DNA of 64,000 nucleotides from Sulfurimonadaceae bacterium. Lineage in GTDB: Bacteria > Campylobacterota > Campylobacteria > Campylobacterales > Sulfurimonadaceae. The notes below the pieces were generated by a model. That model had not been told where the DNA came from, made no database searches, and was given only the letters and a program-made list of their open reading frames with translations. The DNA lies in assembly GCA_050305515.1 (NCBI GenBank), contig JBNLFL010000016.1:17496-81495 (forward strand), in the 5' to 3' direction. This document shows, piece by piece, positions 448 through 63,049 of the stretch; positions within the stretch are counted from its first letter, which is position 1; every line of letters starts with the position of its first letter. The position numbers and the translations under genes are program-made.

Positions 448-3400
448 ATGAGTGTGACCCCTTTCACCCACCTCCATCTGCACACCGAATACTCCCTGCT
501 TGACGGCGCCAACAAGATCTCCGCGCTGATGAGCCGCGTGAAGGAACTGGGCATGACGTCAGTGGCCATGACCGATCACGGAAACATGTTCGGCGCGATC
601 GATTTTTACCAGCAGGCGCGCGAAGCGGGTCTCAAGCCGCTCATCGGCATGGAAGGCTACATTCACAATGGTGAGGAGCTGGGCGACAAGAGTACCAAAC
701 AGCGCTTTCACATCTGCCTTTTTGCCAAAAATATGGCGGGTTACAAAAACCTGATGTACCTCTCCTCCAAGGCCTATATCGAAGGCTATTACTACTTTCC
801 GCGCATTAACAAGCAGGTGCTGCGCGAGTACTCTGAGGGGCTTATCTGTACTTCGGCATGTCTTCAGGGAGAAGTGAACTGGCATCTTAACCTCAAAAAC
901 GAACGTAACGTCAAAAACGGCGCGGGCGGGTATGACGAGGCGAAGCGGATCGCGCTGGAGTACAAGGAGATATTCGGAGAGGATTTTTACCTTGAACTGA
1001 TGCGCCACGGCATTGGCGATCAGCTCTACATTGACGAGCAGCTGCTGAAGCTCTCGCAGGAGACGGGCATCAAGATCGTCGCCACCAACGACACCCACTA
1101 CACCTTCCCCGACGATGCGCAGTATCATGAAGCGTTTATGTGTATCGGGATGAATAAACTGTATGACGACCCCAACCGGATGCGTCACTCGGTGCATGAG
1201 TTTTACATCAAAAGTCCCGAACAGATGGCACGCCTTTTTGCCGACATTCCCGAAGCGCTCGAACATACGCAGGAGATCGTCGAGAAGTGTCAGCTCGAAC
1301 TCAAACTCGGTGACCCGACGCCGCCGAACTTCAAGTTTACCCGCGAATATGCCGAGGCCGAAGGCTTACATGTAAACCATCCCGACGACCCGGAACTCCC
1401 CGAAGATGCTGACAAGGATGCGCGTAAAAAGTGGCTCAGCGCCGCCGACAAGAACGATGCGGAATTTTTCATTCACTGCTGCCGCAAGGGGCTCGAAGCG
1501 CGTCTTGCCTATGTCCCCGAAGCACGCCATGGGGAGTACCGCGAACGGCTTGAGTTCGAGATGAAGGTCATCAACGACATGAAGTTTCCGGGCTACATGC
1601 TCATTGTCTGGGACTTCGTGAAGGTAGCCAAGGAGATGGGTATTGCCGTAGGGCCGGGGCGGGGTTCCGCCGCAGGGTCGCTGGTAGCGTATGCGCTAGA
1701 AATTACCGACATCGATCCCATGAAATACGACCTTCTTTTTGAGCGTTTCCTTAACCCCGAACGGGTCTCCATGCCGGATATCGATATGGACTTCATGCAG
1801 GCGCGCCGTGGCGAAATTATCGATTACGTGGTGCGCAAATACGGCCGTAATCAGGTGGCGCAGATTATCACTTTCGGTTCGCTTCTGGCCAAGGGAGTCA
1901 TCCGTGACGTCGCACGGGTTCTCGACATGCCGCTTTCACAGGCCGACAAGATGGCCAAACTCATTCCCGATGAACTGGGTATTACACTCAACGGAAAGAA
2001 AAAGGGCGACGAGGTCAAACCCGGCGCGTTTCAGAAAGAGCCGAAAATCAAGGAGCTCATCGACTCCGACGCGCAGGCGGCGCGGGTATGGGAGTTTGCC
2101 AAAAAGCTCGAAGGTTTAAAGCGCAATGCCGGAATGCACGCGGCGGGCGTGGTCATTTCCAATGAAGAGCTGTGGCACAAGACGCCCATTTACAAGCCCT
2201 CCGGCGAGGAGACGTTTGTTACCCAGTATTCGCTCAACTACCTTGAAGACGTCGATCTGATCAAGTTCGACTTTCTGGGCCTCAAGACGCTTGACGTTAT
2301 TGACAACGCCCTGAAACTCGTCAAGGCGCGTCACAACATTGCCGTTGACTGGCACACGATCGACGTGGATGACCCGGAAGTGTACCGGGTGATTCAAAGC
2401 GGGGCGACGGTGGGAATGTTCCAGATAGAGAGTTCGGGCATGCAGGATCTGAATAAACGTCTCAAGCCATCCTCTTTTGAAGACCTCATTGCGGTACTGG
2501 CACTCTACCGTCCGGGACCGATGGAGTCGGGGATGCTTGATGACTTTATCGAACGTAAACACGGCCGCAAAAAGATATTTTACCCCTTTGAAGAGGTAAG
2601 CTTTGACATGCTCCAAGATACGCTTGGACCGACTTACGGGATGATCGTCTATCAGGAACAGGTCATGCAGATCGTCCAGACGGTGGGCGGTTTTTCCCTC
2701 GGCGGCGCGGACATCGTACGCCGGGCGATGGGTAAGAAAAAAGCCGATCTTATGAAAAAGTACAATCAGGAGTTCTCCGAGGGGGCGCAAAAGCAGGGGC
2801 TTGATTATAAAAAAGCCTCCGAGCTATTCGACCTGATCGAAAAATTCGCGGGTTACGGTTTCAACAAGTCGCACTCGGCAGCCTATGCGATGGTTACGTT
2901 CCAGACGGCATGGCTCAAGTGCTATTACCCCAAAGAGTTCATGGCGGCGCTGCTCACATCGGAGCGCGATAACACCGACAAGGTGGTCAAGTACATCGAT
3001 GAGGCCAAACGTATGGGCATCGAGCTTTCGCCTCCGGATATCAACCGCTCCTACATGGAGTTTTCACCGGCGACCATCGACGGCAACGAACTGATTCTTT
3101 TCGGGCTCGGTGCCATCAAGGGTGTGGGTGAATCGGCGGTTGAATCGATTCTCGAAGTGCGCAAAGAGGGCACGTTTGGCGATATGCAGGAGTTTGTCAA
3201 CCGTATCAACCCCAACAAGGTCAACAAGAAAGTGATCGAATCCATCGTCAAGGCGGGCGGGTTCGATGCCTTCGGCTTTTCGCGCAAGGCGCTGCTGCAG
3301 CAGATCGAAGCACTTGTGGAGGTCGCCAAAGATGCTTCAACGGCAAAGAAAAACGCCGTAGGCAGTCTGTTTGGAGACGATGAAGAGATCACGACGGTAC

Positions 3401-4068
3401 AGCTCTCGCTCAAAAACGAGCCCGAATACGGTCTGAAAGAGATTCTCGAGTTTGAAAAAGAGACGCTCGGTTTTTACGTTTCGGGCCATCCGCTCGATGA
3501 TTTCAGAAACGAGATCGATAAAATTACCTATACGCTCTCAAGCGACGTTGAAAACATCGCGGACGGCTCAACGGCGATTTTTATCGGAAAAGTCGAGGAG
3601 ATCACCAAGAAGATCTCCAAAAAAGGCAACGCCTTCGGCATTGTCAACCTGATGGACTTTCACGGGAACATCGAAATGATGCTCTTTAGCGACAAGCTTG
3701 AAGAGTTGGAAAAAATGAACCTTGACGAACCGGTGGCTTTCAAGGTCAAGATTACCCATACCGAGCAGTTTACCCGTACAAGCGTCATGAAAATCATTAC
3801 GCTCAAAGAGGCGATGAAAGAGGCGAAAAAGGTTGAAACCAAAATTATGGAAAAACCGCCAGAACCGCTCTTTATCCAGCTGCACATGACGCAGGATATG
3901 GAGCATCTTGAGACACTTTACCGTCTGGTGCGAAAATACCCCGGCAACCGCCCGCTGCAACTGACACTGGTGAGCAAACTTCAAAACATTGTCATTGATT
4001 CGGCGATCCGTGTTGACGGACGGGTTATTGAAGAGCTGGAAAAACTCGCTTTCGTGGATGTCGCATGA
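448..4068 (+). CDS. dnaE: DNA polymerase III alpha subunit
   Basis: 1206 aa. N-terminal PHP domain (HLHLHTEYSLLDG, MTDHGNMFG), polymerase core (GRGSAAGSLVAYAL, PDIDMDF) and a C-terminal OB-fold region. This is the typical DnaE length and motif set. Confidence 0.97.
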   Translation: MSVTPFTHLHLHTEYSLLDGANKISALMSRVKELGMTSVAMTDHGNMFGAIDFYQQAREAGLKPLIGMEGYIHNGEELGDKSTKQRFHICLFAKNMAGYKNLMYLSSKAYIEGYYYFPRINKQVLREYSEGLICTSACLQGEVNWHLNLKNERNVKNGAGGYDEAKRIALEYKEIFGEDFYLELMRHGIGDQLYIDEQLLKLSQETGIKIVATNDTHYTFPDDAQYHEAFMCIGMNKLYDDPNRMRHSVHEFYIKSPEQMARLFADIPEALEHTQEIVEKCQLELKLGDPTPPNFKFTREYAEAEGLHVNHPDDPELPEDADKDARKKWLSAADKNDAEFFIHCCRKGLEARLAYVPEARHGEYRERLEFEMKVINDMKFPGYMLIVWDFVKVAKEMGIAVGPGRGSAAGSLVAYALEITDIDPMKYDLLFERFLNPERVSMPDIDMDFMQARRGEIIDYVVRKYGRNQVAQIITFGSLLAKGVIRDVARVLDMPLSQADKMAKLIPDELGITLNGKKKGDEVKPGAFQKEPKIKELIDSDAQAARVWEFAKKLEGLKRNAGMHAAGVVISNEELWHKTPIYKPSGEETFVTQYSLNYLEDVDLIKFDFLGLKTLDVIDNALKLVKARHNIAVDWHTIDVDDPEVYRVIQSGATVGMFQIESSGMQDLNKRLKPSSFEDLIAVLALYRPGPMESGMLDDFIERKHGRKKIFYPFEEVSFDMLQDTLGPTYGMIVYQEQVMQIVQTVGGFSLGGADIVRRAMGKKKADLMKKYNQEFSEGAQKQGLDYKKASELFDLIEKFAGYGFNKSHSAAYAMVTFQTAWLKCYYPKEFMAALLTSERDNTDKVVKYIDEAKRMGIELSPPDINRSYMEFSPATIDGNELILFGLGAIKGVGESAVESILEVRKEGTFGDMQEFVNRINPNKVNKKVIESIVKAGGFDAFGFSRKALLQQIEALVEVAKDASTAKKNAVGSLFGDDEEITTVQLSLKNEPEYGLKEILEFEKETLGFYVSGHPLDDFRNEIDKITYTLSSDVENIADGSTAIFIGKVEEITKKISKKGNAFGIVNLMDFHGNIEMMLFSDKLEELEKMNLDEPVAFKVKITHTEQFTRTSVMKIITLKEAMKEAKKVETKIMEKPPEPLFIQLHMTQDMEHLETLYRLVRKYPGNRPLQLTLVSKLQNIVIDSAIRVDGRVIEELEKLAFVDVA

Positions 4069-4394
4069 ACAGCGAAGATGTTGAATTCATAGCGCGCCGC
4101 GCCAAATATACCAGACGCTGGAATGTCGTCGCGCTGCTCTCCGTGATTCTGCTTGCGGCAATGGCGGGCAACCTCTGGGTGAATGTGCCGCACATGATCA
4201 ACCCCTTACATGTAAAGACGTTGATCGAAGAGCATGCCCTGACATGCAATCTTGCAGCAACGATGGCCGGCGTCTTGCCTTACATGGTGCTTTTCATCTT
4301 TTTTCTAATGGTCATACTCATTGTGTATGCAAGCGTCATGATACGCAATGAAAAACGTTTTCTTAAGATCATCGAACAGATAAAAAACTCATGA
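4065..4394 (+). CDS. Hypothetical membrane protein (two hydrophobic helices)
   Basis: Start overlaps the dnaE stop (ATGA), suggesting translational coupling. Two clear hydrophobic segments. I recognise no family. Confidence 0.5.
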   Translation: MNSEDVEFIARRAKYTRRWNVVALLSVILLAAMAGNLWVNVPHMINPLHVKTLIEEHALTCNLAATMAGVLPYMVLFIFFLMVILIVYASVMIRNEKRFLKIIEQIKNS

Positions 4395-7096: not shown

Positions 7097-8484
7097 TCAT
7101 GAAACATAATATTTTTCTTTCAATGATTTTGGTCGGGACATCGCTCAGTGCCGGATATGTCGATCATCTCCATCTTCGCGGCGGTGTGAGTAAGGCATTC
7201 ATGGATGAAGCTGATAGCAGCAAAGTCGATACGAAAACCATTAAATCGGTTGGCTGGATTTACGATCTGTCTGCGGTTTTTAACGTTGCGGACGAGGGCT
7301 TTTTCAGTGAGTTCAAGCCCTATATTGATTTTTCCGGACGTCATTATGATGACCGGAGTGCCAATACGGCAGGGGTTGGTCTTTACCATGACTTTGATCC
7401 TGTCGCAGGATTCACCCCTTTTGCATCCGCAGGTATCGGTTACGGACAAATGCGCTGGGAAAATGTTCCGCTGAAGGGAACGGTAGATCGTGACAAAGGG
7501 ATGTCCAGTGCCGTTGGAACTTTACAGGGAGGGCTTTATATGCCGCTTCTTGACTGGCTTGACCTGAGTGCCGGAGTCCGTATGGATGTCTACAGTTTCA
7601 AGACCGAATTTAAAACCGAAGATCATACAACCTCCCAAACCGATAATTTTGCGCTATCAGGGCTGATAGGGCTGCGTTTCAAGTTCCCATCCTCTGCTTC
7701 GGATGAGATCATCGCGGCAGATGAGCCCGACACCAAGCTGCCACCGGCCAACATGGCGGCAGCCGCAACGGCCGCAACAACTGCCGCCGCTGTTACGACT
7801 GCTGTTACGGCTCCGTGTGATCTTTCAAAAACTCCGCGTCATCTCTATTTTGCATTCGACAGTGCCGAGCTTGATGCTCAGGCCAAAAAGATTCTGGATG
7901 ATTCAGCCGCATGTATGAATGAACACCCGGAAACCGTGATTGAATTTGAAGGTCATGCCGACAGTACCGGCCCTGCTGCCTACAACCAGCAACTGTCACT
8001 TAAACGTGCGATATCGGCTCGTGATTATGGTGTGACAGCTGGAATTGCCGCATCGCAGACCAATGTAGCTGCTAAAGGCGAAACCATGCCGATTGCAAGC
8101 AATGCAACACGTGAGGGACGTGCCAAAAACCGCCGTGTTGATATCTATTTCATCGATACAATACTGCCCGTTACGTTTGCATACAATGACACTTCCATCA
8201 CCGGACAGGTTGAAAAACTCAACGGTCTGCTTGAGATGATGCAGAAAAATCCGCAGAGTGCCATTACCATTGTCGGGCATACCGATGATGTGGGCAGCCA
8301 GAAATACAACCTGAAACTTTCGCGCAAACGTGCTGAAGCGGTTAAGGCGTTCCTGGTCGGAAACGGTATCGATGCCGCACGCATTAATGTTGAGGCCAAA
8401 GGAAAACTTGAACCCGCAGTAGAAGGCAAAGATGACGCTTCACGCGCGAAAAACCGTCGTGCCGAGATGACGGTACGCCATTAG
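7093..8484 (+). CDS. OmpA-family outer-membrane protein with two tandem C-terminal OmpA-like domains
   Basis: ATGA overlap with the upstream lipoprotein gene. Signal peptide, then a beta-barrel-like N-terminal half and an Ala/Thr-rich linker ([20 protein letters not shown]). Two OmpA peptidoglycan-binding modules follow, each ending in an NRRV/NRRA motif ([20 protein letters not shown]). Confidence 0.85.
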
Positions 8485-8490
8485 GATGTC

Positions 8491-9744
8491 ATGGTGGAGC
8501 ATTTCAACAGCGATCTCTTTGCGTTTCTGAATGCATCGCCGACACCGTTTCATGCGGTCTCCAGGATGCGTTCAATGCTGCTTGAAGCAGATTTTGAAGA
8601 GCTTCAGGAGAGTGCGTCCTGGAATGTAAAAGAAGGAAAACGCTATTTTTGCATACGTAACGGCAGTGCCCTGATTGCGTTTACGTACCCGAAAACTGCC
8701 AAACCGGGGTATCTGCTTCTGGGTGCCCATACGGACTCGCCCAATCTTAAAATCAAGCCCAATCCGATACAGCAAAAAGAGGGGATGACCCAGCTGGCTG
8801 TCGAACCTTACGGCGGAGTGCTCATCAACCCCTGGTTTGACCGTGAGCTTTCCATTGCCGGCAAGGTTGTCGGTGTTGATGCCGGAGATGCGGTTTGCGA
8901 ATCACTTGTGGATTTTGAAGCGCCTGTGGCTATTATCCCTTCACTGGCAATCCATCTCGACCCGACAGCCAATAAAGAGCGCAGTGTCAACCTCCAGACC
9001 GATATCGCCCCGCTGCTTACATGTAATGAAAATTTCGACTTTGACGCCGCACTTAAAAAAGCCGCCCATGCGGATTTGGAATCGATACTCTCGTACGAAC
9101 TGAGTCTGTACGATGTCCAGAAAGCGGGTTATGTCGGAATCGAGCGCGACTTTATCGCATCGGCACGTCTGGACAATCTGCTTAGCTGTTATGTCAATGT
9201 GCAGACGCTGCTGCAAGCGGGCCCTGACGATGCGGTGATGATCTTCTGTTCGGATCACGAAGAGGTGGGCAGCGAAAGCAGCTCCGGTGCGGCAGGGCCG
9301 TTTCTTGAGCAGTTGCTGCGACGCCTCTACACCCATCCCGAAACCTATGCGCAGATGATCCGAAACTCCCTGATGGTCTCCTGCGACAATGCCCATGCCG
9401 CCCATCCGAACTTTTCGGACAAGCATGAACCGGGGCACAAGCCGCGTATGAACGGCGGTGCCGTCATCAAAATCAACGCTAATCAGCGTTACGCTTCAAA
9501 CGCCCTGAGCATTGCCCGTTTTGCCAAGGCCGCGCAGGATGCTGGAGTCGCCATCCAGCGCTATGTGACCCGCAGCGATATGGGGTGCGGCTCGACCATC
9601 GGCCCGATTACGGCAACCCGTCTGGGGATCGAAACGGTCGATGTCGGCCTGCCGACGCTGGCCATGCACTCCATCCGCGAACTTGCAGGCAGCAGGGATG
9701 CTTACGAACTGGTACAAATCCTTCTGAAGCTTTTGCGTGGCTGA
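8491..9744 (+). CDS. apeB: M18-family aminopeptidase (aspartyl aminopeptidase-like)
   Basis: 417 aa. The N-terminal SPTPFHAV motif, HTDSP, and conserved acidic/His metal-ligand regions (DHEEVGS, AHAAHPN, MHS) are typical of M18 peptidases. Confidence 0.85.
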   Translation: MVEHFNSDLFAFLNASPTPFHAVSRMRSMLLEADFEELQESASWNVKEGKRYFCIRNGSALIAFTYPKTAKPGYLLLGAHTDSPNLKIKPNPIQQKEGMTQLAVEPYGGVLINPWFDRELSIAGKVVGVDAGDAVCESLVDFEAPVAIIPSLAIHLDPTANKERSVNLQTDIAPLLTCNENFDFDAALKKAAHADLESILSYELSLYDVQKAGYVGIERDFIASARLDNLLSCYVNVQTLLQAGPDDAVMIFCSDHEEVGSESSSGAAGPFLEQLLRRLYTHPETYAQMIRNSLMVSCDNAHAAHPNFSDKHEPGHKPRMNGGAVIKINANQRYASNALSIARFAKAAQDAGVAIQRYVTRSDMGCGSTIGPITATRLGIETVDVGLPTLAMHSIRELAGSRDAYELVQILLKLLRG

Positions 9745-10729
9745 CACGCTTTCCCCGCAGGAGCTGCAGTTCTTTATCGAACAGAGCTTCAAGCTTGAAA
9801 ACGATTTTAAAAACCTTAAAGAGTCGTATGAACAGCTGCAGGGAACCATAGAGCGTGTCGTCGCCTTTTTGCCCAATGCCATCTGGATTCTTGAAGAGGA
9901 TGGCAGGGTTTTTCTGGAAAATACCCAGGCGAAGGAACACGCCCATTTACTTGAGGCGCTGCGTTTCGATGAGGAAGAGTATGAACTTGCCATCGATGCG
10001 CGCTATTATCTGATCAAGCTCTCCCGTTATGAGGAGAAACGGCTGATTTCGGCAACGGACATCACGGAGCAAAAGCGCAAGGAAAACCTTGCGACCATGG
10101 GGCAGATGGCGGCGCATCTCTCGCATGAGATCCGTAATCCCATCGGCTCGATTGCACTGCTAACCTCAACTTTGATGAAGCGTGTCATTCCCAAAAACAA
10201 GCCGATCGTCTTTGAGATTCAGAAGTCCATTTACCGAATCGAGCGGATCATCAAATCAACCCTGATGTTTTCCAAAGGGGTCAAGACGCAAATCGAGACC
10301 ATCCGCTGGAGCCAGATTCTTGAAGAGCTTGAGATGGCTATAAGCTATTACAGTTACGCCAAGGAGATTGACTTCATTCTCCCGCGGGATGATTTTGAAC
10401 TCTCGGGCGATGCCGATCTGCTGAGCATGCTCTTTAGCAATTTCATTTTCAATGCCATTGATGCGATTGAGACAGATGAAGAGGAAACGGGCCGTGTGGA
10501 GATGCAGCATGTCGCTGAAGCGGACTTTCACCGTTTTGAAGTCCATGATACGGGCATTCCCATCGAAAACAAGCAGATGCTCTTTGAAGCGTTTAAAAGT
10601 ACGAAGCAGAAAGGAAATGGGCTGGGATTGCTCTTAAGCAAGCAGATTGCAGAGGCCCATGGCGGTGAAGTAGGGCTCTGCGAGGGCGCGCACAAAGGCT
10701 TTTACATTCGCCTGCGCCGCCGGGATTAA
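9737..10729 (+). CDS. Cytoplasmic sensor histidine kinase (PAS-like N-terminus, HisKA, HATPase_c)
   Basis: H-box AAHLSHEIRNPIGSI. N-, G1- and G2-like boxes (FNAIDA, HDTGIPI, GNGLGLLLSKQIAEAHGG). No TM segments. Confidence 0.85.
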   Translation: MADTLSPQELQFFIEQSFKLENDFKNLKESYEQLQGTIERVVAFLPNAIWILEEDGRVFLENTQAKEHAHLLEALRFDEEEYELAIDARYYLIKLSRYEEKRLISATDITEQKRKENLATMGQMAAHLSHEIRNPIGSIALLTSTLMKRVIPKNKPIVFEIQKSIYRIERIIKSTLMFSKGVKTQIETIRWSQILEELEMAISYYSYAKEIDFILPRDDFELSGDADLLSMLFSNFIFNAIDAIETDEEETGRVEMQHVAEADFHRFEVHDTGIPIENKQMLFEAFKSTKQKGNGLGLLLSKQIAEAHGGEVGLCEGAHKGFYIRLRRRD

Positions 10730-11292
10730 TCTTCCAGAATCCCTTCGATTTCAATCTGGAGTTTGACTGTGTCGCTTACGGCAACTCCGCCGGCTTCAAT
10801 CAGCTTGTTCCATTTGACACCGTAATCAAGACGGTTGATCTCGCCTTCGAGGCTGAAACCGACGCGCTGGTTCCCCCACGGATCTTCAATCATACCACCC
10901 AATTCGTATTCAAGTTCGATCTCTTTGGTAACACCGTGCATCGTAAAGGTTCCGTAAAGTTTGTCACCCTTGATTTTGGTCATCTTGAAGGTGATGTCGG
11001 GATATTTTGCAACATCGAAAAAATCGGCACTGCGCAGGTGGTTGTCGCGCTTTTCAATGCCGGTATCGATGGAAGCAACTTTAATGTCACCTTCGAGTGC
11101 GGTCAGGGTTTTGCTTTTTTCATCAAACGCAAAGCTGCCGCTGAACTCTTTGAAGTCGCCGCGGACATTGCTGACCATCATGTGTTTGACCTTGAATCCG
11201 ACGTTCGTGTGCGAGTTGTCGAGTTTGTAGGTTCCGCCAAAAAGCAGTACCGACGTAAGCAGTGTCAGTGAAAGTAGACGTGGAAGTTTCAT
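10726..11292 (-). CDS. YceI-family periplasmic (polyisoprenoid-binding-like) protein
   Basis: Signal peptide MKLPRLLSLTLLTSVLLFG. YceI-type pattern (YKLDNSHTNVGFKVKHMMVSNVRGDF...RDNHLRSADFFD). Start moved to the internal ATG at 11292, which has AGGAG upstream; the track start was 11319. Confidence 0.85.
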   Translation of the reverse strand: MKLPRLLSLTLLTSVLLFGGTYKLDNSHTNVGFKVKHMMVSNVRGDFKEFSGSFAFDEKSKTLTALEGDIKVASIDTGIEKRDNHLRSADFFDVAKYPDITFKMTKIKGDKLYGTFTMHGVTKEIELEYELGGMIEDPWGNQRVGFSLEGEINRLDYGVKWNKLIEAGGVAVSDTVKLQIEIEGILED

Positions 11293-11394
11293 AAGAGGCT
11301 CCTGAAATTTGGAATGCAACCATCATATTATGCTTACATGTAAAGCTTCCAAAAGTCATTCACCTGATTGAACAGATAAAGAAAACTTTAATGA

Positions 11395-12090
11395 TTATGA
11401 AAAACGGTTTCTAAAGTGTTTTGCCCCGTCTTTGCTCGATTCGACCGTGTCACTGATTCCCTCGAAACTGAAACGGATTTTGCTCTGTTCGATGGTCTCC
11501 ATCTCCCTGATATGATCGAGGTTAATCAGATAGGAGCGATGAATACGCACAAAATGGTGCGGCAGCAGCATTGTTTCAAGGTCGGATATTTTTTTGGTGA
11601 TATATGAGAAGCCTTTTTTTGTGCGCAGCATCACCTCGCTCAGATCGGCTTTGATATAGTAGATCTCTTCGGGACGCAGCAGGTAGTAGTTTTCGCCGTT
11701 GCGGCTCATAATGCGCAGGTCGCCGCTTGCCGAACGCATCTCGAGCGTCACGCGTTCAAGTGTTTTTTCAAGCTGTTCGATACTGTAGGGCTTGACAAGG
11801 TAGCCGATTGCGCCCATGTCGAAGGCATCAAGCGCATGGTCGCTGTAGGCGGTCTGAAAAATCAATGCGCTCGAACTCCCCCGGTAGCGGAGTTCATAGC
11901 CCAGATCAATACCGTTCATCGCCCCCATTTCAATATCAAGAAAGATCACATCGAAAGGGGTGGCAGCGGCTGCTTCAAGTGCGCCGGGGGCATCTTCGGC
12001 TGCCGTAATGTGTTCATGGCCGAGCGTGCGCAGCATACGTTCAAGACGCTGCCGTGCCAGAACCTCGTCATCGACAATGAGAATATTCAT
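11395..12090 (-). CDS. Two-component response regulator, LytTR DNA-binding family
   Basis: Receiver domain (ILIVDDE...DVIFLDIEM) plus a C-terminal LytTR domain (FVRIHRSYLINLDHI). Confidence 0.9.
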   Translation of the reverse strand: MNILIVDDEVLARQRLERMLRTLGHEHITAAEDAPGALEAAAATPFDVIFLDIEMGAMNGIDLGYELRYRGSSSALIFQTAYSDHALDAFDMGAIGYLVKPYSIEQLEKTLERVTLEMRSASGDLRIMSRNGENYYLLRPEEIYYIKADLSEVMLRTKKGFSYITKKISDLETMLLPHHFVRIHRSYLINLDHIREMETIEQSKIRFSFEGISDTVESSKDGAKHFRNRFS

Positions 12091-15179: not shown

Positions 15180-15321
15180 GGTGATTCCAGAAAAGTTTTT
15201 TGATATCCATAGCCTGCAGTGTAGCTAAAATTATACAAAGATTGATCAACTGACACCGGTGATCTTCCAAATGATTGCAATTACAGGCAAACTGTTACAT
15301 GTAAAGCAAAAAGGAGTTCCC

Positions 15322-49099: not shown

Positions 49100-49121
49100 A
49101 TTTTACATGTAAGGAACTTCC

Positions 49122-51398: not shown

Positions 51399-51446
51399 CG
51401 CAGGCGTTTTGTTTGTTACCGCTTACATGTAAGGCTTTTCAAGTTT

Positions 51447-55442: not shown

Positions 55443-56402
55443 ATGTATAATTCATTGATTGACAAAGAGTTTCAAAGAATTATCTTAAATAATACTGCCA
55501 TGTGGTTAAATATGTTGGATAATGACGCTAACGTAGTTATGTGGAATAAAGCTGCAGAGAAGATAAGTGGCTATAGCAAAGAAGAGGTACTTGGCCATAA
55601 TAAAATATGGGAGTTACTTTATCCAGATGAAGATTATCGTACTTCTATTTACAATAAAGCACTTGAAATTATTGATAGTGGAGAAGAAATTATAGATTTT
55701 GAAACAACTATAATTTCTAAAGATGGTACTAAGAAAATTTTATCTTGGAACACACATCAGATGGTGGATAAAGATAAAAATATTATTGGTTCTCTTGCTA
55801 TAGCAAGAGACATTACAAAAATAAAAGCTCATGAAAAAAACCTCCAATTATTGACACTTGAATTAGAAAAATCAAATGAAAAACTACTTGAATTAAGTTA
55901 TGTTGATCCACTAACAAACATACCAAATAGAAGAGCTTATGACGAAAGATACGCACATGAGTTACAAGCCACAAAAAGATCAGGAAAAGAGTTCTCTTTT
56001 TTATTAATTGATATTGATCATTTCAAAGAATATAATGATATATATGGACATGAAAATGGTGATGTTATTTTATTTAGAGTCTCTAATCAAATAAAAAATG
56101 TATTACCAAGAAAAACTGATTTTATTGCGCGTTATGGCGGTGAAGAAATAGTAGTAATACTCTCTTATACACCTCTAAAGGAAGCACAAATTATTGCAAA
56201 AAAAATTCTTCAATCTATACGTGACTTAAATATTGAACACTCATATTCAAAGTTTGATCGATTGTTAACTGTTAGTATAGGGGTTACTTCTACAAAAATC
56301 TCTATTGAAAATGTAATGGACGATGCAGATCAAGCACTTTATAAAGCCAAGAATAATGGGCGTAATAGGTTTGAAGTCTACTCTGATGAACCTTGTTTAT
56401 AA
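55443..56402 (+). CDS. PAS + GGDEF diguanylate cyclase (active-site GGEEI with RxxD I-site)
   Basis: PAS domain (NVVMWNKAAEKISGYSKEEVLG). GGDEF domain with RKTDFIARYGGEEIVVIL. Codon usage is markedly AT-rich compared with the flanking genes. Confidence 0.85.
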   Translation: MYNSLIDKEFQRIILNNTAMWLNMLDNDANVVMWNKAAEKISGYSKEEVLGHNKIWELLYPDEDYRTSIYNKALEIIDSGEEIIDFETTIISKDGTKKILSWNTHQMVDKDKNIIGSLAIARDITKIKAHEKNLQLLTLELEKSNEKLLELSYVDPLTNIPNRRAYDERYAHELQATKRSGKEFSFLLIDIDHFKEYNDIYGHENGDVILFRVSNQIKNVLPRKTDFIARYGGEEIVVILSYTPLKEAQIIAKKILQSIRDLNIEHSYSKFDRLLTVSIGVTSTKISIENVMDDADQALYKAKNNGRNRFEVYSDEPCL

Positions 56403-56577
56403 AGTTCCAATCTTCGACAGGCAAAGGCTTAGAGTTGATAAATCATTTCCGTTTCAATGCTAAAGGTAAAAACTTGTATTTTCTATAGCTACCTTATTTT
56501 GGGATTTTTTCTCGCTTTACAATAAGGGTTTGATCTGCTTTAGGGCAGGCTTTTAGGCACCTTTTTAGTGTAACTGA

Positions 56578-57333
56578 TTACATAATACTAGATGCTCTTA
56601 CTGTTAAAAGGAACTCTTTTTCTTTAGACCATGGATTTGATTTAGTATTTTCTAGTTCAATTATAAATTCTTTTTTGTTTGGATGATAAAGATGCCCAAG
56701 CCCATGCAAGCCATATGATTCAAATCTAGCATCTCCGCTATAAATCATCTTTTTATAGTGTTCTAGACAAATTCCAAGTAGTTGTTTATGTTTATCGGGT
56801 CGATTATCAAACCACTTTTTCACTTTATCTTCATTGTATTCAACATAACCAGGCTCATCATCGCTTTTCAATTCTTTCCAAAAACGATCTTCGTCATTTA
56901 CTTGATATGAATTTACCGAATCTGAAACACTTTCGCAAAACATATCAAATCCATTTGGCATCATATAAATCGGATTTTCAAAAACATTTTGCCACAGCAT
57001 TTGAAAGAAAGAGTCTATTAGCTCTTTTATCAATTCAACATCATCGAACTTATTAATCACAAAATTTATGCTTTCTGGTCCTGATTGTACAAACCATATA
57101 TAGACATCAAGAATATCTAAATCTTCATCTTTAGCTATCTGCCTATTTAATTCTATAAGATTTCTTGCATACTTCTCACAACGAGCACATTGGATCATAG
57201 GTGCTTCATCAGCATAATACCAATTATCATCTTTTCTGAATAACAGTTCTTGTAGTTGGGACAGATTCAAATCATCTAAGTCAATAATATCAATGTGTTC
57301 ATGATCTATTTCGTCATTCATATCATTTCTCAA
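56578..57333 (-). CDS. Hypothetical acidic protein (251 aa), partner of the HEPN-motif gene
   Basis: AT-rich ORF 44 nt downstream of the 393-aa gene on the same strand. No recognisable domain. Very acidic N-terminus (DEIDHEHIDIIDLDDL). Confidence 0.55.
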   Translation of the reverse strand: MRNDMNDEIDHEHIDIIDLDDLNLSQLQELLFRKDDNWYYADEAPMIQCARCEKYARNLIELNRQIAKDEDLDILDVYIWFVQSGPESINFVINKFDDVELIKELIDSFFQMLWQNVFENPIYMMPNGFDMFCESVSDSVNSYQVNDEDRFWKELKSDDEPGYVEYNEDKVKKWFDNRPDKHKQLLGICLEHYKKMIYSGDARFESYGLHGLGHLYHPNKKEFIIELENTKSNPWSKEKEFLLTVRASSIM

Positions 57334-57377
57334 TTATTAAATTTTGATCTTTACATGTAATCCCAAAAGCACCATCT

Positions 57378-58559
57378 CTACTTTGCCAGATCTTGAAAAA
57401 CGCAAAGTGGAAACTCGTATCTTTTTTGATTATCTTCCTGATCTGACGGTGTATGGTAAAAGAGTTGCTCCAAGACAAGAAAGCCAATAATTGATGACTT
57501 AAGTGAAAACTCACTCGTATTCGCCACGCCGTGACCTACTGAGTTTCGTGAGATTTCAGCAGGTTCTCCGGGGGCAAAGTTTGCAAAATAGATTTTATTC
57601 AAATAGTCGCTAAACTTTGCTGGTAAGATTCTTGAATAACGCTCTTTTTGAATTTTCGACATTTTCATTGGCGCATTTGCTAAATTTTTTTGACTATATT
57701 GCGTACTGTTTATGAATTGATTCACACTTCTTAGAACCCCTTCAATACGGGGGTAAAGAATAGAAGTTGAACTAATATAATCTTTCTCTATAAATCTTTC
57801 TGCGGCACGCTCAAGGAGATCAATGTGCTCACCAAAAATATGAGAGTTACGCCATTTTTCAAGGAATTCAGGTAAAGATTTTTCAACTTCAGTAGCTATG
57901 TCAGTTAATAGCTCATCGCAATCCCAATCGGCTTTGACATAATTGAGTAGTGAAGTAATGGTTTTCTTTTTTAAGCCGATGAATGGAAACCATTTCTTTT
58001 CAAATAGTTTATCCCATTCGTCATCGCTGATTTTATGTAAGTCTTGAAAAAACAAGTAATTGTAGAAGTGGCCCAAGTTTGCCCAAATATCATATTCAAT
58101 TTTATATTCATTGTCGACTATTGATGTAAAATCAAAAAAGAAGCCTTTTCGCCATCCTTTCGATAGGATGACAAAGTATCCCACATCATTAGGTATTTCT
58201 GTGCCTTTGAACTCCAATGATACGATATCTGCAAAATCATCTTCAAAAACAGGGTCACCTTTTTTCATTGATTTTTTGATACGAGCTTTGGCAACAAGGT
58301 CTATTTCATTCAGATAAACATCACACTTACCATCTTTATGAAATATTGCAAGCATGTGGTCTAGCGTGGAACAGCGAATATTTTGATCTTTTGGCAGTAG
58401 ATTAATGACTTCTGTAGGAATGCCATCTAATCTACTTATAAATTCATCACCATCCTCATACGATGTAAATTCACGTGTGATAAGGGAAACATTTTCACCT
58501 GATCTGGCTTCGGTTGCAGTGTAGCCAGCAGGTGGGCGATCAAATTTTACAGTATACAA
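57378..58559 (-). CDS. Hypothetical protein with C-terminal HEPN-like (Rx4H) motif region, Abi-like
   Basis: 393 aa with a TTG start preceded by AGGAG. The C-terminal helical region contains ISRNSVGHGVA (R-x4-H, the HEPN nuclease signature). Its helices resemble abortive-infection C-terminal domains. The call rests on this motif alone. Confidence 0.55.
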   Translation of the reverse strand: MYTVKFDRPPAGYTATEARSGENVSLITREFTSYEDGDEFISRLDGIPTEVINLLPKDQNIRCSTLDHMLAIFHKDGKCDVYLNEIDLVAKARIKKSMKKGDPVFEDDFADIVSLEFKGTEIPNDVGYFVILSKGWRKGFFFDFTSIVDNEYKIEYDIWANLGHFYNYLFFQDLHKISDDEWDKLFEKKWFPFIGLKKKTITSLLNYVKADWDCDELLTDIATEVEKSLPEFLEKWRNSHIFGEHIDLLERAAERFIEKDYISSTSILYPRIEGVLRSVNQFINSTQYSQKNLANAPMKMSKIQKERYSRILPAKFSDYLNKIYFANFAPGEPAEISRNSVGHGVANTSEFSLKSSIIGFLVLEQLFYHTPSDQEDNQKRYEFPLCVFQDLAK

Positions 58560-58580
58560 TAGAGATGCTCCTGATTTGTA

Positions 58581-58621
58581 ACCTAACGGTGGTACGGGTT
58601 CAGCCCTTTGGGTTGTTAGAC
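58581..58621 (-). repeat. Short attC-like site candidate (41 bp), weakest of three
   Basis: Minus strand reads GTCTAAC-AACCC-AAAGGGC-TGA-ACCCGTA-CCACC-GTTAGGT. Both core boxes are canonical (RYYYAAC ... GTTRRRY), but the length is below that of known attC sites. Confidence 0.3.
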
Positions 58622-58622
58622 A

Positions 58623-58726
58623 AAAAGGGGACAGGCTACTTTAGCTAGTAAATGGGGACAAGCTACTTTTTCTTTACATGTAAAAGAGTTAGTGCTTAAT
58701 TTCAATAAAGTAGCCTGTCCCCTTTT
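58623..58726. repeat. 104-bp element bounded by 21-bp perfect inverted repeats (MITE-like or long-stem RNA structure)
   Basis: AAAAGGGGACAGGCTACTTTA at 58623-58643 is the exact reverse complement of 58706-58726. An imperfect internal copy lies at 58650-58670. A related copy, AAAAGTAGCCTCGTCACCTTTT, lies at 55312-55333 at the island edge. Confidence 0.7.
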
Positions 58727-59114
58727 CCTTAGGTGCGTTAATAATACTAGATATTTTATTTATATAGAATAAGTTAATTAATAATGGTACTCCAAGTACC
58801 ATAAGTGCCTCAATATACCAACCACTAAATAAAGAAGGAATACCACTAGCCCAAGAAGGAAGGATAATTAATCCGATTGAGCTTATCCACTTAATATTTT
58901 TAATAGGCATAATGTTATTTTTTATAAAATGTATTAAAAACAATCCAGAAATTAAAAAAATAGGAACTGCCGCTAAAACTAAAGTAATAAAACTATTAAT
59001 TTTTATAACAATGCCTAGCATCCATAGCATTTCATATTTTTTTAAAATTTTTCCAGAAATAATTAACAGATCAATTGTCCAAGATGCTGTATAGCCAGCA
59101 AGCTCCTGCTGCAA
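58689..59114 (-). CDS. Hypothetical multi-pass membrane protein (start uncertain)
   Basis: AT-rich ORF with three or four hydrophobic helices. The track start is TTG. The first in-frame ATG is at 59030 (MLWMLGIV...). The last 7 codons lie inside the right arm of the 21-bp inverted repeat. Confidence 0.45.
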   Translation of the reverse strand: MQQELAGYTASWTIDLLIISGKILKKYEMLWMLGIVIKINSFITLVLAAVPIFLISGLFLIHFIKNNIMPIKNIKWISSIGLIILPSWASGIPSLFSGWYIEALMVLGVPLLINLFYINKISSIINAPKEKGTGYFIEIKH

Positions 59115-59163
59115 GTCCGACTAAAAATATAATAATTGATAAATATATTTTTTTCATTCCATT

Positions 59164-59232
59164 ACCTAACGTTTAAAATGAGCCGATGAATTGCCCGCAG
59201 GGTAATTCATCGGCTCCTCTGATTTGTTAGAT
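59164..59232 (-). repeat. attC-like structured repeat, copy 1 (69 bp)
   Basis: Minus strand reads ATCTAAC-AAATC-AGAGGAG-[CCGATGAATT ACCCTGCGGGC AATTCATCGG]-CTCATTT-TAAAC-GTTAGGT. This is the 7-5-7-variable stem-7-5-7 layout of integron attC sites. It starts 3 nt after the stop of the 59236..59535 ORF. Confidence 0.6.
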
Positions 59233-59235
59233 CTG

Positions 59236-59535
59236 CTATCCAGCAAGTAATACTCCTATTGTCATATAGATTAACAAAATAACTAGTGCAATACTTCCCG
59301 CAATACGAAAAGCTTTTTCGAGGTAAAAACTTTTTGCTCGCAAGTATCTGGAAGACAAGAATAGTAACAGGGTAGTAAGCCCCCAAGAACCATACCAAAT
59401 AGGCAACATAATAGGTTGCTGATTTGGAAGATTATAAACAATTCCAAAAATCAAAAATAGCCAGACTGCTGCTACAAAAGAAGCTCCGAGAATAACTCCC
59501 AAGATTATCTGGCTACTTGATTTTACAAGATTCAT
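59236..59535 (-). CDS. Hypothetical small membrane protein (~99 aa)
   Basis: Start set at ATG 59535 (MNLVKSSSQIILGVILG...), because the track start at 59574 would lie inside repeat copy 2. Three hydrophobic helices. Confidence 0.5.
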   Translation of the reverse strand: MNLVKSSSQIILGVILGASFVAAVWLFLIFGIVYNLPNQQPIMLPIWYGSWGLTTLLLFLSSRYLRAKSFYLEKAFRIAGSIALVILLIYMTIGVLLAG

Positions 59536-59552
59536 TGTTTGTTCAATCCTTG

Positions 59553-59624
59553 AGCTAACGTTTAAAATGAGCAATCAAAAAGCCGCCCGCGGGTTTTTGA
59601 TTGCTCTCCTTTGATTTGTTAAAA
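59553..59624 (-). repeat. attC-like structured repeat, copy 2 (72 bp)
   Basis: Its arms match copy 1 (CTAACGTTTAAAATGAGC ... GCTC.CCT.TGATTTGTTA on the plus strand). The central 9 stem positions differ from copy 1 and remain perfectly complementary (AATCAAAAA/TTTTTGATT versus CGATGAATT/AATTCATCG). It starts 3 nt after the stop of the 106-aa ORF. Confidence 0.6.
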
Positions 59625-59627
59625 GTA

Positions 59628-59948
59628 TCATCTAATACTATTGACAGCTTCTTGCATAGCCTTACGTTTTTTATCAACTAAGTCTTGTCCCATTGCTTGT
59701 AATTTATGATTCTTGTGGAACAATAAATAAAGCAATTTTTCCATTGAACTTTCAGACATTTTAAAAACTTCATTTGCACGAGGACCGTAATCACGTTTAT
59801 AAAAGACATCATTAATTTGGATGGTTTCACCATATTCATCAATATGTTCTTTTCTTGCAGTTGATTCCCTCCAAGGAAAATAGTTATCTCCCATTTCCTT
59901 GAGATAGGAAAGATATATGTCAAATTCTTCAAAAGTAAGATAGTTCAT
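59628..59948 (-). CDS. Hypothetical soluble protein (106 aa)
   Basis: AT-rich ORF with GGAGCC upstream of the ATG. No recognisable family. Followed immediately by repeat copy 2. Confidence 0.5.
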   Translation of the reverse strand: MNYLTFEEFDIYLSYLKEMGDNYFPWRESTARKEHIDEYGETIQINDVFYKRDYGPRANEVFKMSESSMEKLLYLLFHKNHKLQAMGQDLVDKKRKAMQEAVNSIR

Positions 59949-60111
59949 AAAGGCTCCAATGTCTTTTAACTATTTATTCAACAAACATTATATAAAAAAC
60001 AGCCAGATAGTGCCAAATAAACAAACACAAAAAATGTTGGTATAAATGATAAAACCATTGCAAAATGCACTATCTTGACTCTTTTGAGCCTTACATGTAA
60101 GGGTCTATTTC

Positions 60112-60912: not shown

Positions 60913-60914
60913 TC

Positions 60915-62963
60915 TTACTCCTTGATCGCTTTGAGTCTTAAGCGCACATAATCAATATGCCATCCGTTTTTTGGGCTGTAAAGCGTTGGTTTGCATATTC
61001 TGCGAACCTCCTCTTTAAACACGCCAAACTCTGTGGGGCTTAAATGTGCCGTGACGCCGTTGGCAAAAAGATCAAGCCAGTGGCTAATGTCATCCACCGG
61101 GGTGGGGCGTTTGATCAACTCTATGTATTCTACTCTAAATCCCTGCGACTCCAAAAGTTTTTGGTAGTGCGCAACACTGGGAAAAAACCACGGGTTTTCA
61201 AACGCTCCAAACTCGGGATGTTCCTTAAAGGCCTGAGCCATGGCATCTACAGCGGTTTTGGCATTGCCCTCGCCGCCAAACTCCGCCACAAAGCGGCCCC
61301 CGGGTTTAAGCACGTTATAAATGTTTTTCACCACGCTATCGCTCTCTTTAATCCAGTGCAATACGGCGTTGGAAAAGAGCGCGTCAAAATGGTTTTCAAA
61401 AGGCATGTTTGTGGCATTCATCACGTGTGCATCCAGCCCTTTAGCCCGTGCGCTCGCAACCATCTCTGCGCTGGCATCCACCGCTGTAACCTTAGCGCCC
61501 GATGTCTGAATCTCCAGCGCAAGCCGTCCTTCGCCGCAGCCCAAATCCAAAATCTGCTCGCCTGCTTTGGGCGCAAGCAGATCCACCACGCTCAAGGCCA
61601 ACTCCGAGACAAACGCGGCATGTTTGTTGTAGGCATCGGCATTCCAGCGGTTTTCATTGCGCTGCATCATGCCCTCATAAATACCCAACACCTCCTCACT
61701 GCCAATCTCTTTGCCGCGTGTTTCGCTGATGAGTTTGACTTTAGCGGCCAATTCGGCCTGCATCTCCAAAGGTGTGTCGATGCCGTATATCTCTTTAAGC
61801 ACATACGCCACACCCCCTTTGCCCGATTGCGAGTTGATGCGCACCGTATCTTGGTAGCGGCGTTTAATATCGCGCGGATCAATGGCAAGATAGGGCACAC
61901 TCCATACCGAAGATTCGCTGTTTCGGTAATGCTCAATCCCTTTTTTAATCGCGTCTTGATGCGTTCCCGAAAAGGCGGTATAGATCATTGAGCCCACATA
62001 CGGATGCCGCTCACCAACACTCATGCCGGTAATGGCGGTAATACGCTTTAAAATCTCATCAATCCGTTCTACATGTAAGCGCGGATCAATCCCTTGCGCA
62101 TAGTAGTTAAAGGCCAAAGTTACCAAATCCACATTGCCTGCGCGCTCGCCATTGCCAAGCATGGTGCCTTCAACACGTTCGGCTCCTGCCAATACCGCCA
62201 TTTCGGCACTGGCCACGGCGCAGCCGCGATCGTTATGCGGATGCACGCTTATAATGACGCTTTCACGGTTGCGTATGTGCGTGCTCATCCACTCGATTCT
62301 ATCGGCATAAATATTGGGCGAACAGGCTTCAAGGGTGTTGGGCAAGTTCAAAATCATCGGTGCATCTGGCGTGGGGTTGTAGGCCGCAATAACGGCATTG
62401 GAAACCTCAAGCGCGTATTCCAATTCGGTCTGCGAAAAGCTCTCGGGCGAATACTCAAACACCACCGCTCCCTCAAAACGTGCCGCTTCGCGTTTCATAA
62501 TACGCACCCCTTCAAGTGCCAAGTCAATAATGGCCTCTTTGGAGCGCTTAAAAACCACCTCGCGCTGGTTGGCGGCAGTAGGATTGTACAGATGCATTGT
62601 AATGCGTCTGGCGCCTTTAAGTGCTTCGAAACTGCGCACAATATGCTTTTGTATCGAAGGGGTCAAGATGCCAACGGTAACATCATCGGGAATCAAACCC
62701 TCTTCAATCAAGCGGCGGCAAAAATCAAACTCGGTTTGCGAAGCGCTAGGGTAGGCAATCTCAATCTCTTTCAAACCAAAATCGACAAGCGCTTTGAAAT
62801 AGGCAATTTTTTGCGCAATTCCCATAGGGTTTGCAAGGGCCTGATTGCCATCTCGCAAATCGGTACTCACCCACGTTGGGGCAACAGTGGCACTTTTATT
62901 TGGCCATATTCTTTGGTGCAATGCAACCGTGGGATACGGCTGATATTTGACATGCGTCTGCAT
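60915..62963 (-). CDS. 2-isopropylmalate-synthase-like (long/type-2 LeuA catalytic region) fused to C-terminal class-I SAM-dependent methyltransferase
   Basis: N-terminal ~440 aa carry WVSTDLRDGNQAL, HLYNPT and HPHNDRGCAVA (HMGL-like TIM barrel of LeuA). The C-terminal ~240 aa carry ILDLGCGEGRLA...VDASAEMV...LKPGGRFV (methyltransferase motifs I to III). Start set at ATG 62963, preceded by TAAGGAAA. Confidence 0.8.
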   Translation of the reverse strand: MQTHVKYQPYPTVALHQRIWPNKSATVAPTWVSTDLRDGNQALANPMGIAQKIAYFKALVDFGLKEIEIAYPSASQTEFDFCRRLIEEGLIPDDVTVGILTPSIQKHIVRSFEALKGARRITMHLYNPTAANQREVVFKRSKEAIIDLALEGVRIMKREAARFEGAVVFEYSPESFSQTELEYALEVSNAVIAAYNPTPDAPMILNLPNTLEACSPNIYADRIEWMSTHIRNRESVIISVHPHNDRGCAVASAEMAVLAGAERVEGTMLGNGERAGNVDLVTLAFNYYAQGIDPRLHVERIDEILKRITAITGMSVGERHPYVGSMIYTAFSGTHQDAIKKGIEHYRNSESSVWSVPYLAIDPRDIKRRYQDTVRINSQSGKGGVAYVLKEIYGIDTPLEMQAELAAKVKLISETRGKEIGSEEVLGIYEGMMQRNENRWNADAYNKHAAFVSELALSVVDLLAPKAGEQILDLGCGEGRLALEIQTSGAKVTAVDASAEMVASARAKGLDAHVMNATNMPFENHFDALFSNAVLHWIKESDSVVKNIYNVLKPGGRFVAEFGGEGNAKTAVDAMAQAFKEHPEFGAFENPWFFPSVAHYQKLLESQGFRVEYIELIKRPTPVDDISHWLDLFANGVTAHLSPTEFGVFKEEVRRICKPTLYSPKNGWHIDYVRLRLKAIKE

Positions 62964-63049
62964 GATAATTTCCTTACATGTAACAATAATAAAATTCAAA
63001 TGCCGCTAAGGGGCAAAACTAAAAAAAAGGGTAAAAAAGGGAAGAAAAA

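Follow-up and report, generated by a model that had tools for sequence, protein, structure and literature searches.

To our knowledge, experimental proof of sequence-specific DNA uptake exists only in the Neisseriaceae and the Pasteurellaceae, with HIP1 (highly iterated palindrome 1, GCGATCGC) of cyanobacteria as a recent candidate. We analyzed a word that resembles these systems in part, the perfect 10-bp palindrome TTACATGTAA, which is found in 24 exact copies in a 64-kb stretch of a Sulfurimonadaceae genome (GenBank assembly GCA_050305515.1, contig JBNLFL010000016.1, positions 17,496–81,495), referred to below as the window. HIP1 is likewise a short perfect palindrome in 15- to 300-fold or greater excess, its copies scattered in and between genes with flanks unique to each, and its sites are conserved between genomes, which has been taken as evidence of selection (PMC5861425); recent preprints report a methylation-dependent rise in natural transformation and a phylogenetic link of HIP1 with DNA-uptake genes. 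The DNA uptake sequences (DUS) of the Neisseriaceae and the uptake signal sequences (USS) of the Pasteurellaceae have 35–65% of their copies in open reading frames (ORFs), with intergenic enrichment, a frame bias and a placement at poorly conserved residues (PMC2817400), and DUS dialects with a conserved core have been documented (PMC3630211). Campylobacter jejuni, of the same phylum as the host of the window, restricts its uptake to DNA in which the palindrome RAATTY is methylated (PMC10046745). This CtsM-methylated site is, like TTACATGTAA, a palindromic word, and C. jejuni discriminates self from non-self at uptake; unlike TTACATGTAA, RAATTY is a degenerate word of 6 bp, for which no special enrichment is required. 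No published description of TTACATGTAA, of a second word TTCCACATGCCAA presented below or of uptake sequences in Campylobacterota (Epsilonproteobacteria) was found in full-text searches, the coverage of which excludes most subscription journals.

Abundance, placement and origin of the copies

The earlier note on this DNA had listed 24 exact copies and judged them far above chance; the count and the coordinates stand, except that one start is 35619 and not 35618. Dinucleotide shuffles of the window contain 0.01 copies on average (maximum 1) and Markov-1 to Markov-4 models predict 0.035–0.23. The overall expectation is 0.01–0.06 copies, and the word is in several hundred-fold excess. If the density of 0.375 copies per kb, or about 1 per 2.7 kb, holds throughout, the genome would contain an estimated 900 copies at least. 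The profile of the word is all-or-none: besides the exact copies there are five with one mismatch, found at the starts previously given and always deviating at position 1 or 10, and words with two mismatches are at background level (17 observed vs. ~24 expected). TACATGTA is the sole enriched 8-bp palindrome (29 copies vs. 0.7 expected), and after masking of TTACATGTAA no other 8- to 12-mer stands out in the window. A metagenome scan for two copies 340–370 bp apart yielded, after removal of eukaryote-like and tandem-repeat contigs, at least ~37 gene-dense contigs (30–49% GC, 347 kb including locus L056) with 221 copies in unique flanks; results given below for this pool of motif-rich contigs hold among the matches listed. 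Many of these contigs encode proteins 55–92% identical to those of Campylobacterota loci. As a short perfect palindrome in at least 15-fold excess, dispersed and with unique flanks, TTACATGTAA has the properties of a HIP-type word; from HIP1 itself it differs in sequence, in phylum and in length (10–14 bp vs. 8 bp). Its density in the window and at two related loci (0.32–0.41 copies per kb in L209 and L211, see below), far above expectation, is also comparable to the ~0.4–1 copy per kb of DUS and USS, words that number hundreds to thousands per genome and have in common with it the intergenic enrichment and a minority of one-off variants.

The core of the word bears on one alternative reading, according to which a DNA methyltransferase, either orphan or linked to restriction, recognizes it and it serves as an epigenetic mark in a methylation-dependent cytoplasmic function (such as repair strand choice, replication timing or nuclease self-marking) with no role in uptake. 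Type II systems typically have targets of this kind, a palindrome with a CATG/ACATGT core, two orphan methylases recognize HIP1, and the patchy distribution of TTACATGTAA, reminiscent of horizontal gene transfer, would fit mobile methyltransferase specificities. Restriction targets are usually avoided and not enriched, as had been remarked before for the CATG core, but neither holds for CATG in the window, with 367 occurrences vs. 388 expected. ACATGT occurs 34 times, 29 of them within TACATGTA; the five non-motif copies suggest a depletion that we do not claim, and in the motif-rich pool the non-motif count is 49 vs. about 60–66 for sister hexamers, a marginal difference; both CATG and non-motif ACATGT have roughly ordinary frequencies. 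The excess of C-to-T or G-to-A changes expected from decay of 5-methylcytosine was not found among the one-off variants. Whereas HIP1 has its orphan methylases, a search for the cognate enzyme proposed earlier gave no DNA methyltransferase or restriction gene in the window, and a regular-expression screen of the motif-rich loci for DNA methyltransferases returned only a 'DPPF' match in an RsmD-like rRNA methylase. We know of no type II specificity of 8–10 bp with this sequence and regard such a mark as improbable.

The flanks of the window copies have nothing in common beyond ±2 bp. Within this range no copy has A at −1 or −2 and few or none have T at +1 or +2, a symmetric preference, and the consensus pooled from the motif-rich contigs is the symmetric Y-T-TTACATGTAA-A-R. 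The non-random flanks described before are recovered: GC precedes 8 of the 24 copies and GC or AGC follows 6, and longer palindromes are formed at 31505 and 45237 (GCTTACATGTAAGC) and at 40013 (GCTTTACATGTAAAGC). A long palindrome around a copy was seen in a single case, of 32 bp with an 11-bp extension on each side (Table 1). The spacing between copies is more even than random (coefficient of variation 0.62, p ~0.009 in a post-hoc test). Perfect dyad symmetry including the flanks, even spacing and the conservation of sites between relatives would also agree with an array of binding sites for an abundant dimeric chromosome-organising protein of the nucleoid-associated, occlusion or SMC-loading type, selected for architecture and not for uptake. 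A role in nucleoid structure was proposed for HIP1 by Xu et al. (PMC5861425), and a TetR-family gene with weak SlmA/RefZ-like matches adjoins the copy at 62974. However, TetR genes are ubiquitous and the adjacency is of little weight, and a sister clade without copies together with other relatives carrying a different, asymmetric word would be odd for core architecture. The arrays of SlmA, Noc and MatP (matS) are indeed made of scattered palindromic sites, 12–16 bp in length and dimer-bound, but they comprise tens of degenerate sites per genome, which the exact 10-mers at ~1 per 2.7 kb, estimated at 900 or more, far exceed. We consider this architectural explanation unlikely; together with the methylation mark and the biased repair discussed below it is among the main rivals of an uptake word.

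Half of the copies, 12 of 24, are in the 8.1% of the window bases that no long ORF covers (binomial p = 8e-8). The copies at 15295, 31507 and 62974 are also intergenic once the starts are moved to an ATG behind a clear ribosome-binding site, in agreement with the 15 of 24 reported before with corrected starts, and the non-coding share of the copies is therefore 50–62% in ~8% of the sequence. About one third of the intergenic spacers hold a copy, often 3–19 bp past a stop codon, and three or four intergenic copies are fused to a TAAGGA ribosome-binding site. The 9 to 12 copies within genes, which are of unrelated function, use only the two stop-free frames (0 and 1, read as Leu-His-Val or x-Thr-Cys-Lys). 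The motif-rich pool gives the same picture, with 30% of the copies in the 8.8% of bases that are non-coding (p = 3e-19) and with coding copies in frames 0 and 1 only. Intergenic enrichment and frame-restricted coding copies that alter the peptide at poorly conserved residues are features known from DUS and USS, and the non-coding shares given here fall in the range published for these words.

The frequent occurrence in spacers, the overlap with ribosome-binding sites, the copy at the tip of the 32-bp palindrome and a few copies that sit in hairpins in other genomes could be taken to mean that the word acts locally in expression, as the operator of a very large regulon, as a translation element (through the TAAGGA fusions or the AUG-UAA start-stop it contains) or as a terminator tip. 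This is very unlikely, as the 9 to 12 copies here and 70% elsewhere are inside unrelated genes, most copies in the window have no accompanying T-run or hairpin, and scans of the window against Rfam and for tRNAs gave no match. The promoters of one functional gene set, where a regulon operator should be found, are not the sites occupied: copies lie in genes and after stops, and the adjoining genes have no common functional theme. The likeness to HIP1 or uptake sequences rather than to a regulon operator, suggested in the earlier note, is borne out by the in-gene copies, the two stop-free frames, the conservation in orthologs and the enrichment in other lineages.

Comparison with orthologs reveals how the copies arose. 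In DnaE, the G-L-D-I-N of relatives is G-L-H-V-N in the window with the length unchanged. By means of the UbiD-family protein we reached two related loci, L209 (GCA_016938735.1; UbiD 82% identical in amino acids), with 7 copies in 21.8 kb, and L211 (GCA_050292685.1; 77%), with 9 copies in 21.8 kb, vs. 0.02–0.05 expected. The two UbiD sites of the window are present at the same codons in both (the one at 35619 as CTACATGTAA in L209), in genes that are 71–77% identical in nucleotides and whose flanking codons differ. Motif-free UbiD relatives encode [L/M]-E-[V/I] and T-C-E or T-V-N at these places, so that the motif was formed through E to H and E to K changes. The photolyase copy common to the window and L209 was also formed by substitution. 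It is one of six exact copies in the 1.3 kb of the photolyase gene at L209:1–1303, and at the places of the five others the window has unrelated sequence; a 400-residue ORF of Sulfurospirillum arcachonense (L056:6721–7923) holds four copies, and both cases mean that copies can cluster strongly in single genes. Conservation at orthologous positions, proposed earlier as a check, is found in related motif-rich genomes: the coding sites in UbiD and photolyase are kept at the same codons in genomes 62–77% identical in nucleotides, intergenic sites only partly, since the copy upstream of UbiD has one-mismatch counterparts and the one after the ABC1 gene is not conserved in L209. Homologous metagenome contigs (71–89% nucleotide identity) were compared after removal of the sites that triggered their retrieval. 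Between motif-rich partners a site is kept in 31 of 32 directed comparisons; over all comparisons 33 of 51 sites are kept, the expectation for random 10-mers of these alignments being 8.2, and almost every loss is against a motif-poor partner. The copies are thus formed in place by point substitution without indels, even at amino-acid cost, collect in intergenic spacers and in the two stop-free frames, where they can be tolerated, and once formed are held unchanged across 20–30% divergence of their surroundings. They continue to accumulate.

These observations effectively refute, for 23 of the 24 copies, the reading of the word as remnants or ends of a short mobile element such as a miniature inverted-repeat transposable element (MITE), a repetitive extragenic palindrome (REP) or an insertion scar. 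The copy at 58674 does lie within a ~80-bp repeated structured element common with the metagenome contig L152, and TTAC is the target tetranucleotide of IS608. However, beyond ±2 bp the flanks of the remaining 23 copies are unrelated, coding copies align to motif-free orthologs without indels, and there is no transposase in the window. REP units, their mosaic assemblies (BIME), MITEs and Correia repeats are similarly abundant, partly palindromic and mostly intergenic, but they are units of 20–150 bp with conserved flanks, inserted as blocks and rarely genic, whereas here 10–14 bp are made by substitution and many copies are in genes. The longer element with conserved flanks that the earlier note had named as the finding to overturn its proposal was looked for and did not appear, and we consider a mobile origin hardly tenable.

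Formation by substitution anywhere, including at amino-acid cost, together with the sharp profile in which near-cognates are at or slightly below background, would be expected as well if the word were a functionless by-product of sequence-biased repair or gene conversion that turns near-cognates into the word, comparable to very-short-patch repair. We know of no repair system with a 10-bp specificity. Non-core ACATGT is not clearly depleted, and the sites persist in place through 20–30% divergence instead of being replenished at random places, a persistence taken by Xu et al. as evidence of selection for HIP1 (PMC5861425). We give this possibility little credence.

Distribution and dialects of the word

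The DnaE protein places the window in the Campylobacterota beside Sulfurimonadaceae and Sulfuricurvum-like metagenome-assembled genomes (MAGs), with a best identity of 82%; its GC content of ~51% is unusually high for the group. In the DnaE tree it pairs with L002, which also has a copy. TTACATGTAA is at least 100-fold enriched in several other Campylobacterota lineages. S. arcachonense DSM 9755 has 8 copies in 24 kb vs. 0.08 expected, a second Sulfurospirillum MAG carries the word as CTACATGTAR, and the TACATGTA core is present in L012, L078 and L022. S. arcachonense has TTACATGTAA at four orthologous sites, and a related MAG has CTACATGTAA or CTACATGTAG at three. L039 and L056 display this outer-base dialect in a concerted manner at orthologous sites; a concerted shift of this kind in one Sulfurospirillum lineage would follow from a change in the specificity of one reader common to all copies.

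A different word, (T)TTCCACATGCCAA, is found at the Sulfurimonas loci L035, L013, L026 and L027, with 7–15 copies per 14–24 kb vs. 0.2–0.4 expected. It has the ACATG core in common with TTACATGTAA but is asymmetric and occurs in both orientations, its intergenic copies as closely spaced inverted pairs (for example L035:417/435, 9893/9918, 14825/14842 and 16393/16420) and its in-gene copies singly, which is the classic layout of DUS and USS. In the DnaE tree, clades with TTACATGTAA and clades with TTCCACATGCCAA are intermingled, and both words occur in L012 and L027. Lineage dialects with a conserved core are likewise a feature of DUS and USS. A broader proposal, which we put forward tentatively, is that Campylobacterota outside Campylobacter and Helicobacter possess an unrecognised system of 'self'-words, with fast-evolving ACATG-core dialects (TTACATGTAA, CTACATGTAR and TTCCACATGCCAA) read by a determinant of specificity that is itself transferable, be it a receptor or a methylase paired with a reader; exchange groups would then reach across families, and genomic islands would move preferentially between genomes sharing a word.

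Several further lineage-specific over-represented words were noted in the phylum: TGATGCTAAG in L024 (10 copies, 8 of them on one strand), AAACGCAG in L017 (20 copies), AGAATCTA in Helicobacter sp. CLO-3 (L075; 47 copies in 23 kb) and AATTTGCAAA in L072, as overlapping palindromic pairs. The over-represented word of L041 sits in a repetitive coding region. The candidate word TTCAACATTCAA of L007, a member of the sister clade, was dropped as it derives from a single tandem heptamer array, (AACATTC)n at L007:4156–4190, which could be a phase-variable tract. Low-ORF metagenome repeats (a 24-member family, mostly Ga0209679, a subset of L085–L193) with the 10-mer inside long non-coding repeats, and L086, L125 and L141 with the 10-mer inside 22–38 bp tandem arrays, were left out of the statistics; they probably represent eukaryotic or satellite DNA with no relation to the bacterial word. 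A scan of viral sequences gave 8 matches, none with host-like dispersed enrichment. One of these contigs, L203 (IMGVR_UViG_3300030385_000605), carries a longer palindrome, ATCTTACATGTAAGAT(A), seven times upstream of genes at 7576–11552; it resembles a regulatory site specific to the phage, with the 10-mer contained in it by coincidence.

The word as a possible mark of self DNA

Chance, an RNA family, a conventional set of operators and, for 23 of the 24 copies, a mobile element are excluded by the data, which place the word with HIP1, DUS and USS in one class. We favor, with a probability of roughly 45%, the reading of Y-T-TTACATGTAA-A-R as a lineage-specific, genome-wide signature word of the HIP1/DUS/USS class whose most likely role would be to mark 'self' or kin DNA in natural transformation. 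Every copy would be seen by one sequence-specific reader (a receptor, a DNA-binding protein or a methyltransferase), presumably homodimeric because of the perfect dyad symmetry that includes the flanks. The word would mark DNA by biasing uptake, recombination or both, and its recognition may involve methylation of the CATG/ACATGT core, by analogy with HIP1 and the RAATTY of C. jejuni. Word-bearing DNA would be preferentially acquired, and the word would be spread and maintained by molecular drive together with selection.

A number of observations weigh against this reading. The word is a perfect palindrome, whereas the known DUS and USS lack symmetry and have a receptor of the pilin type as their reader. 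The sister clade of the window (L001, L003–L007, ~90 kb in total) has no copies and the same 10-mer is common to distant families, whereas DUS dialects follow phylogeny; HIP1 for its part is near phylum-wide, whereas TTACATGTAA is patchy within families and has a strong intergenic bias. The intergenic excess in the window is 19-fold, above that of USS and DUS, and the fusion of three or four copies to ribosome-binding sites could be a sign of a local role. According to Findlay and Redfield (PMC2817400), recently acquired genes lack uptake sequences, yet the AT-rich island described below has copies. No competence, pilin-receptor, DNA methyltransferase or restriction gene was found in the window or in the ~400 kb covered by the motif-rich loci, and the function of the word is inferred. 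The evidence on the host genome comes from one 64-kb window.

If the word does mark self DNA, it would be a third or fourth independent case of an uptake word, in an environmentally dominant phylum and with both palindromic and asymmetric dialects, and would help to test whether such words stem from uptake bias, from methylation or from both. Since gains, losses and dialect shifts are frequent here, the reader could be identified by comparative genomics; S. arcachonense DSM 9755 is a cultured carrier available for experiments, and the words would provide practical tags for genetic work in relatives of Sulfurimonas and Sulfurospirillum. Should the function differ, the maintenance of a 10-bp word at a density of ~1 per 2.7 kb, despite its protein-coding cost, would still be a major constraint on these genomes that calls for an explanation.

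Individual copies and gene content of the window

The individual copies are listed in Table 1. The window contains ordinary chromosomal genes (dnaE, histidine kinases, GGDEF/EAL proteins, photolyase, UbiD-family decarboxylase, SHMT, PhoD), and no restriction, DNA-methylase, competence or transposase gene was found in its 64 kb.

Table 1. Copies of TTACATGTAA and associated structures in the window (SD, Shine-Dalgarno sequence; SD and RBS, ribosome-binding site; positions in window coordinates)
Position	Feature	Context	Remarks
1366–1375	exact copy	inside dnaE, frame 0 (Leu-His-Val)	relatives G-L-D-I-N, window G-L-H-V-N, no indel
4206–4215	exact copy	inside 109-aa ORF 4065–4394, frame 0
9017–9026	exact copy	inside M18 aminopeptidase gene, frame 1 (x-Thr-Cys-Lys/Asn)
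11334–11343	exact copy	intergenic, 14 bp upstream of YceI-like gene start	51 bp after LytTR regulator stop
13789–13798	exact copy	inside CrtD-like FAD oxidoreductase gene, frame 1
15295–15304	exact copy	intergenic, divergent spacer, 17 bp upstream of ATG 15322	AAGGAG between
18818–18827	exact copy	intergenic, 89 bp upstream of radical-SAM gene start
19182–19191	exact copy	intergenic, 19 bp after histidine-kinase stop
22832–22841	exact copy	intergenic, 10 bp after PNP-oxidase stop
24919–24928	exact copy	inside 1221-aa coiled-coil ORF, frame 1
28978–28987	one-mismatch copy TTACATGTAG (position 10)	coding
31496–31527	32-bp perfect palindrome GATCTGAATGCTTACATGTAAGCATTCAGATC, motif 31507–31516 central	intergenic, between CsgG-like stop and SD/ATG (31472) of next gene
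33246–33255	exact copy	intergenic, 3 bp after ABC1-kinase stop	not conserved in L209
34585–34594	one-mismatch copy GTACATGTAA (position 1)	coding
35619–35628	exact copy	inside UbiD-family menaquinone decarboxylase gene, frame 1 (Phe-Thr-Cys-Lys)	same codon: motif in L211, CTACATGTAA in L209
36088–36097	exact copy	inside UbiD gene, frame 0 (Leu-His-Val)	exact at same codon in L209 and L211; motif-free relatives [L/M]-E-[V/I]
37006–37015	exact copy	intergenic, fused to UbiD RBS (TTACATGTAAGGAAAATG)	L209 counterpart GTACATGTAAGGAG
40016–40025	exact copy	inside photolyase gene, frame 1 (Phe-Thr-Cys-Lys), within GCTTTACATGTAAAGC	identical site in L209
44585–44594	exact copy	intergenic, between YggS-like gene stop and PhoD start
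45239–45248	exact copy	inside YggS-like (Ala_racemase_N) gene, frame 0, within GCTTACATGTAAGC
49103–49112	exact copy	intergenic, fused to RBS (TTACATGTAAGGAACTTCCATG)	9 bp before ATG 49122
51423–51432	exact copy	intergenic, convergent genes	24 and 14 bp after the stops
51571–51580	one-mismatch copy CTACATGTAA	coding
51901–51910	one-mismatch copy TTACATGTAG	coding
57351–57360	exact copy	intergenic, in 30–37% GC island	17 bp from either neighbor gene
58627–58725	~100-bp structured element, copy 58674–58683 in hairpin loop	intergenic	in AT-rich island; three GGGGACAGGCTACTTT arms (58627+, 58654+, 58707−)
60091–60100	exact copy	intergenic, 11 bp after TauE-like gene stop
62069–62078	one-mismatch copy CTACATGTAA	coding
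62974–62983	exact copy	intergenic, fused to RBS (TTACATGTAAGGAAATTATCATG, ATG at 62963)	spacer divergent from TetR-family gene

The AT-rich island at 55500–60050 (30–37% GC vs. about 51% for the window) is likely horizontally acquired. It holds five or six ORFs (56578–57333, 57378–58559, 58689–59114, 59236–59574, 59628–59948) without Pfam or NCBIfam match and, in agreement with the earlier note, two copies of TTACATGTAA, that is the native density. The stretch 58647–58725 of the structured element is 82–92% identical to 5–7 repeats in the motif-rich metagenome contig L152 (32% GC). An island at native word density and an element common with L152 fit an exchange among taxa that share the word. 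The three arms of the element could form alternative hairpins, which are followed by a T-run; in L152 the repeats are flanked by small variable ORFs, among them several for membrane proteins with the C-terminus ...RGKK(N/D)(K/R)LL, and the element may be the cassette junction of a polymorphic gene family.

Downstream of the CsgG-like gene (31558–32307), two adjacent giant ORFs on the minus strand, 24210–27875 (~1220 residues) and 27888–31472 (~1195 residues), have no Pfam domain. The former gives weak coiled-coil, Rad50/SMC-like matches and the latter has an N-terminal signal peptide; together with the CsgG-like gene they may constitute an operon for secretion or a surface structure. A radical-SAM gene followed by a DUF4130 gene (16765–18728, minus strand), a pair known from other annotations as a putative system of DNA modification or repair, is preceded by a 482-bp spacer (18729–19210) with two copies of the motif. 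Finally, the ORF 51447–52727 (minus strand), which contains the two one-mismatch copies at 51571 and 51901, encodes an unusual fusion of an AraC-type helix-turn-helix, an O6-methylguanine-DNA methyltransferase DNA-binding domain and a GNAT acetyltransferase domain.

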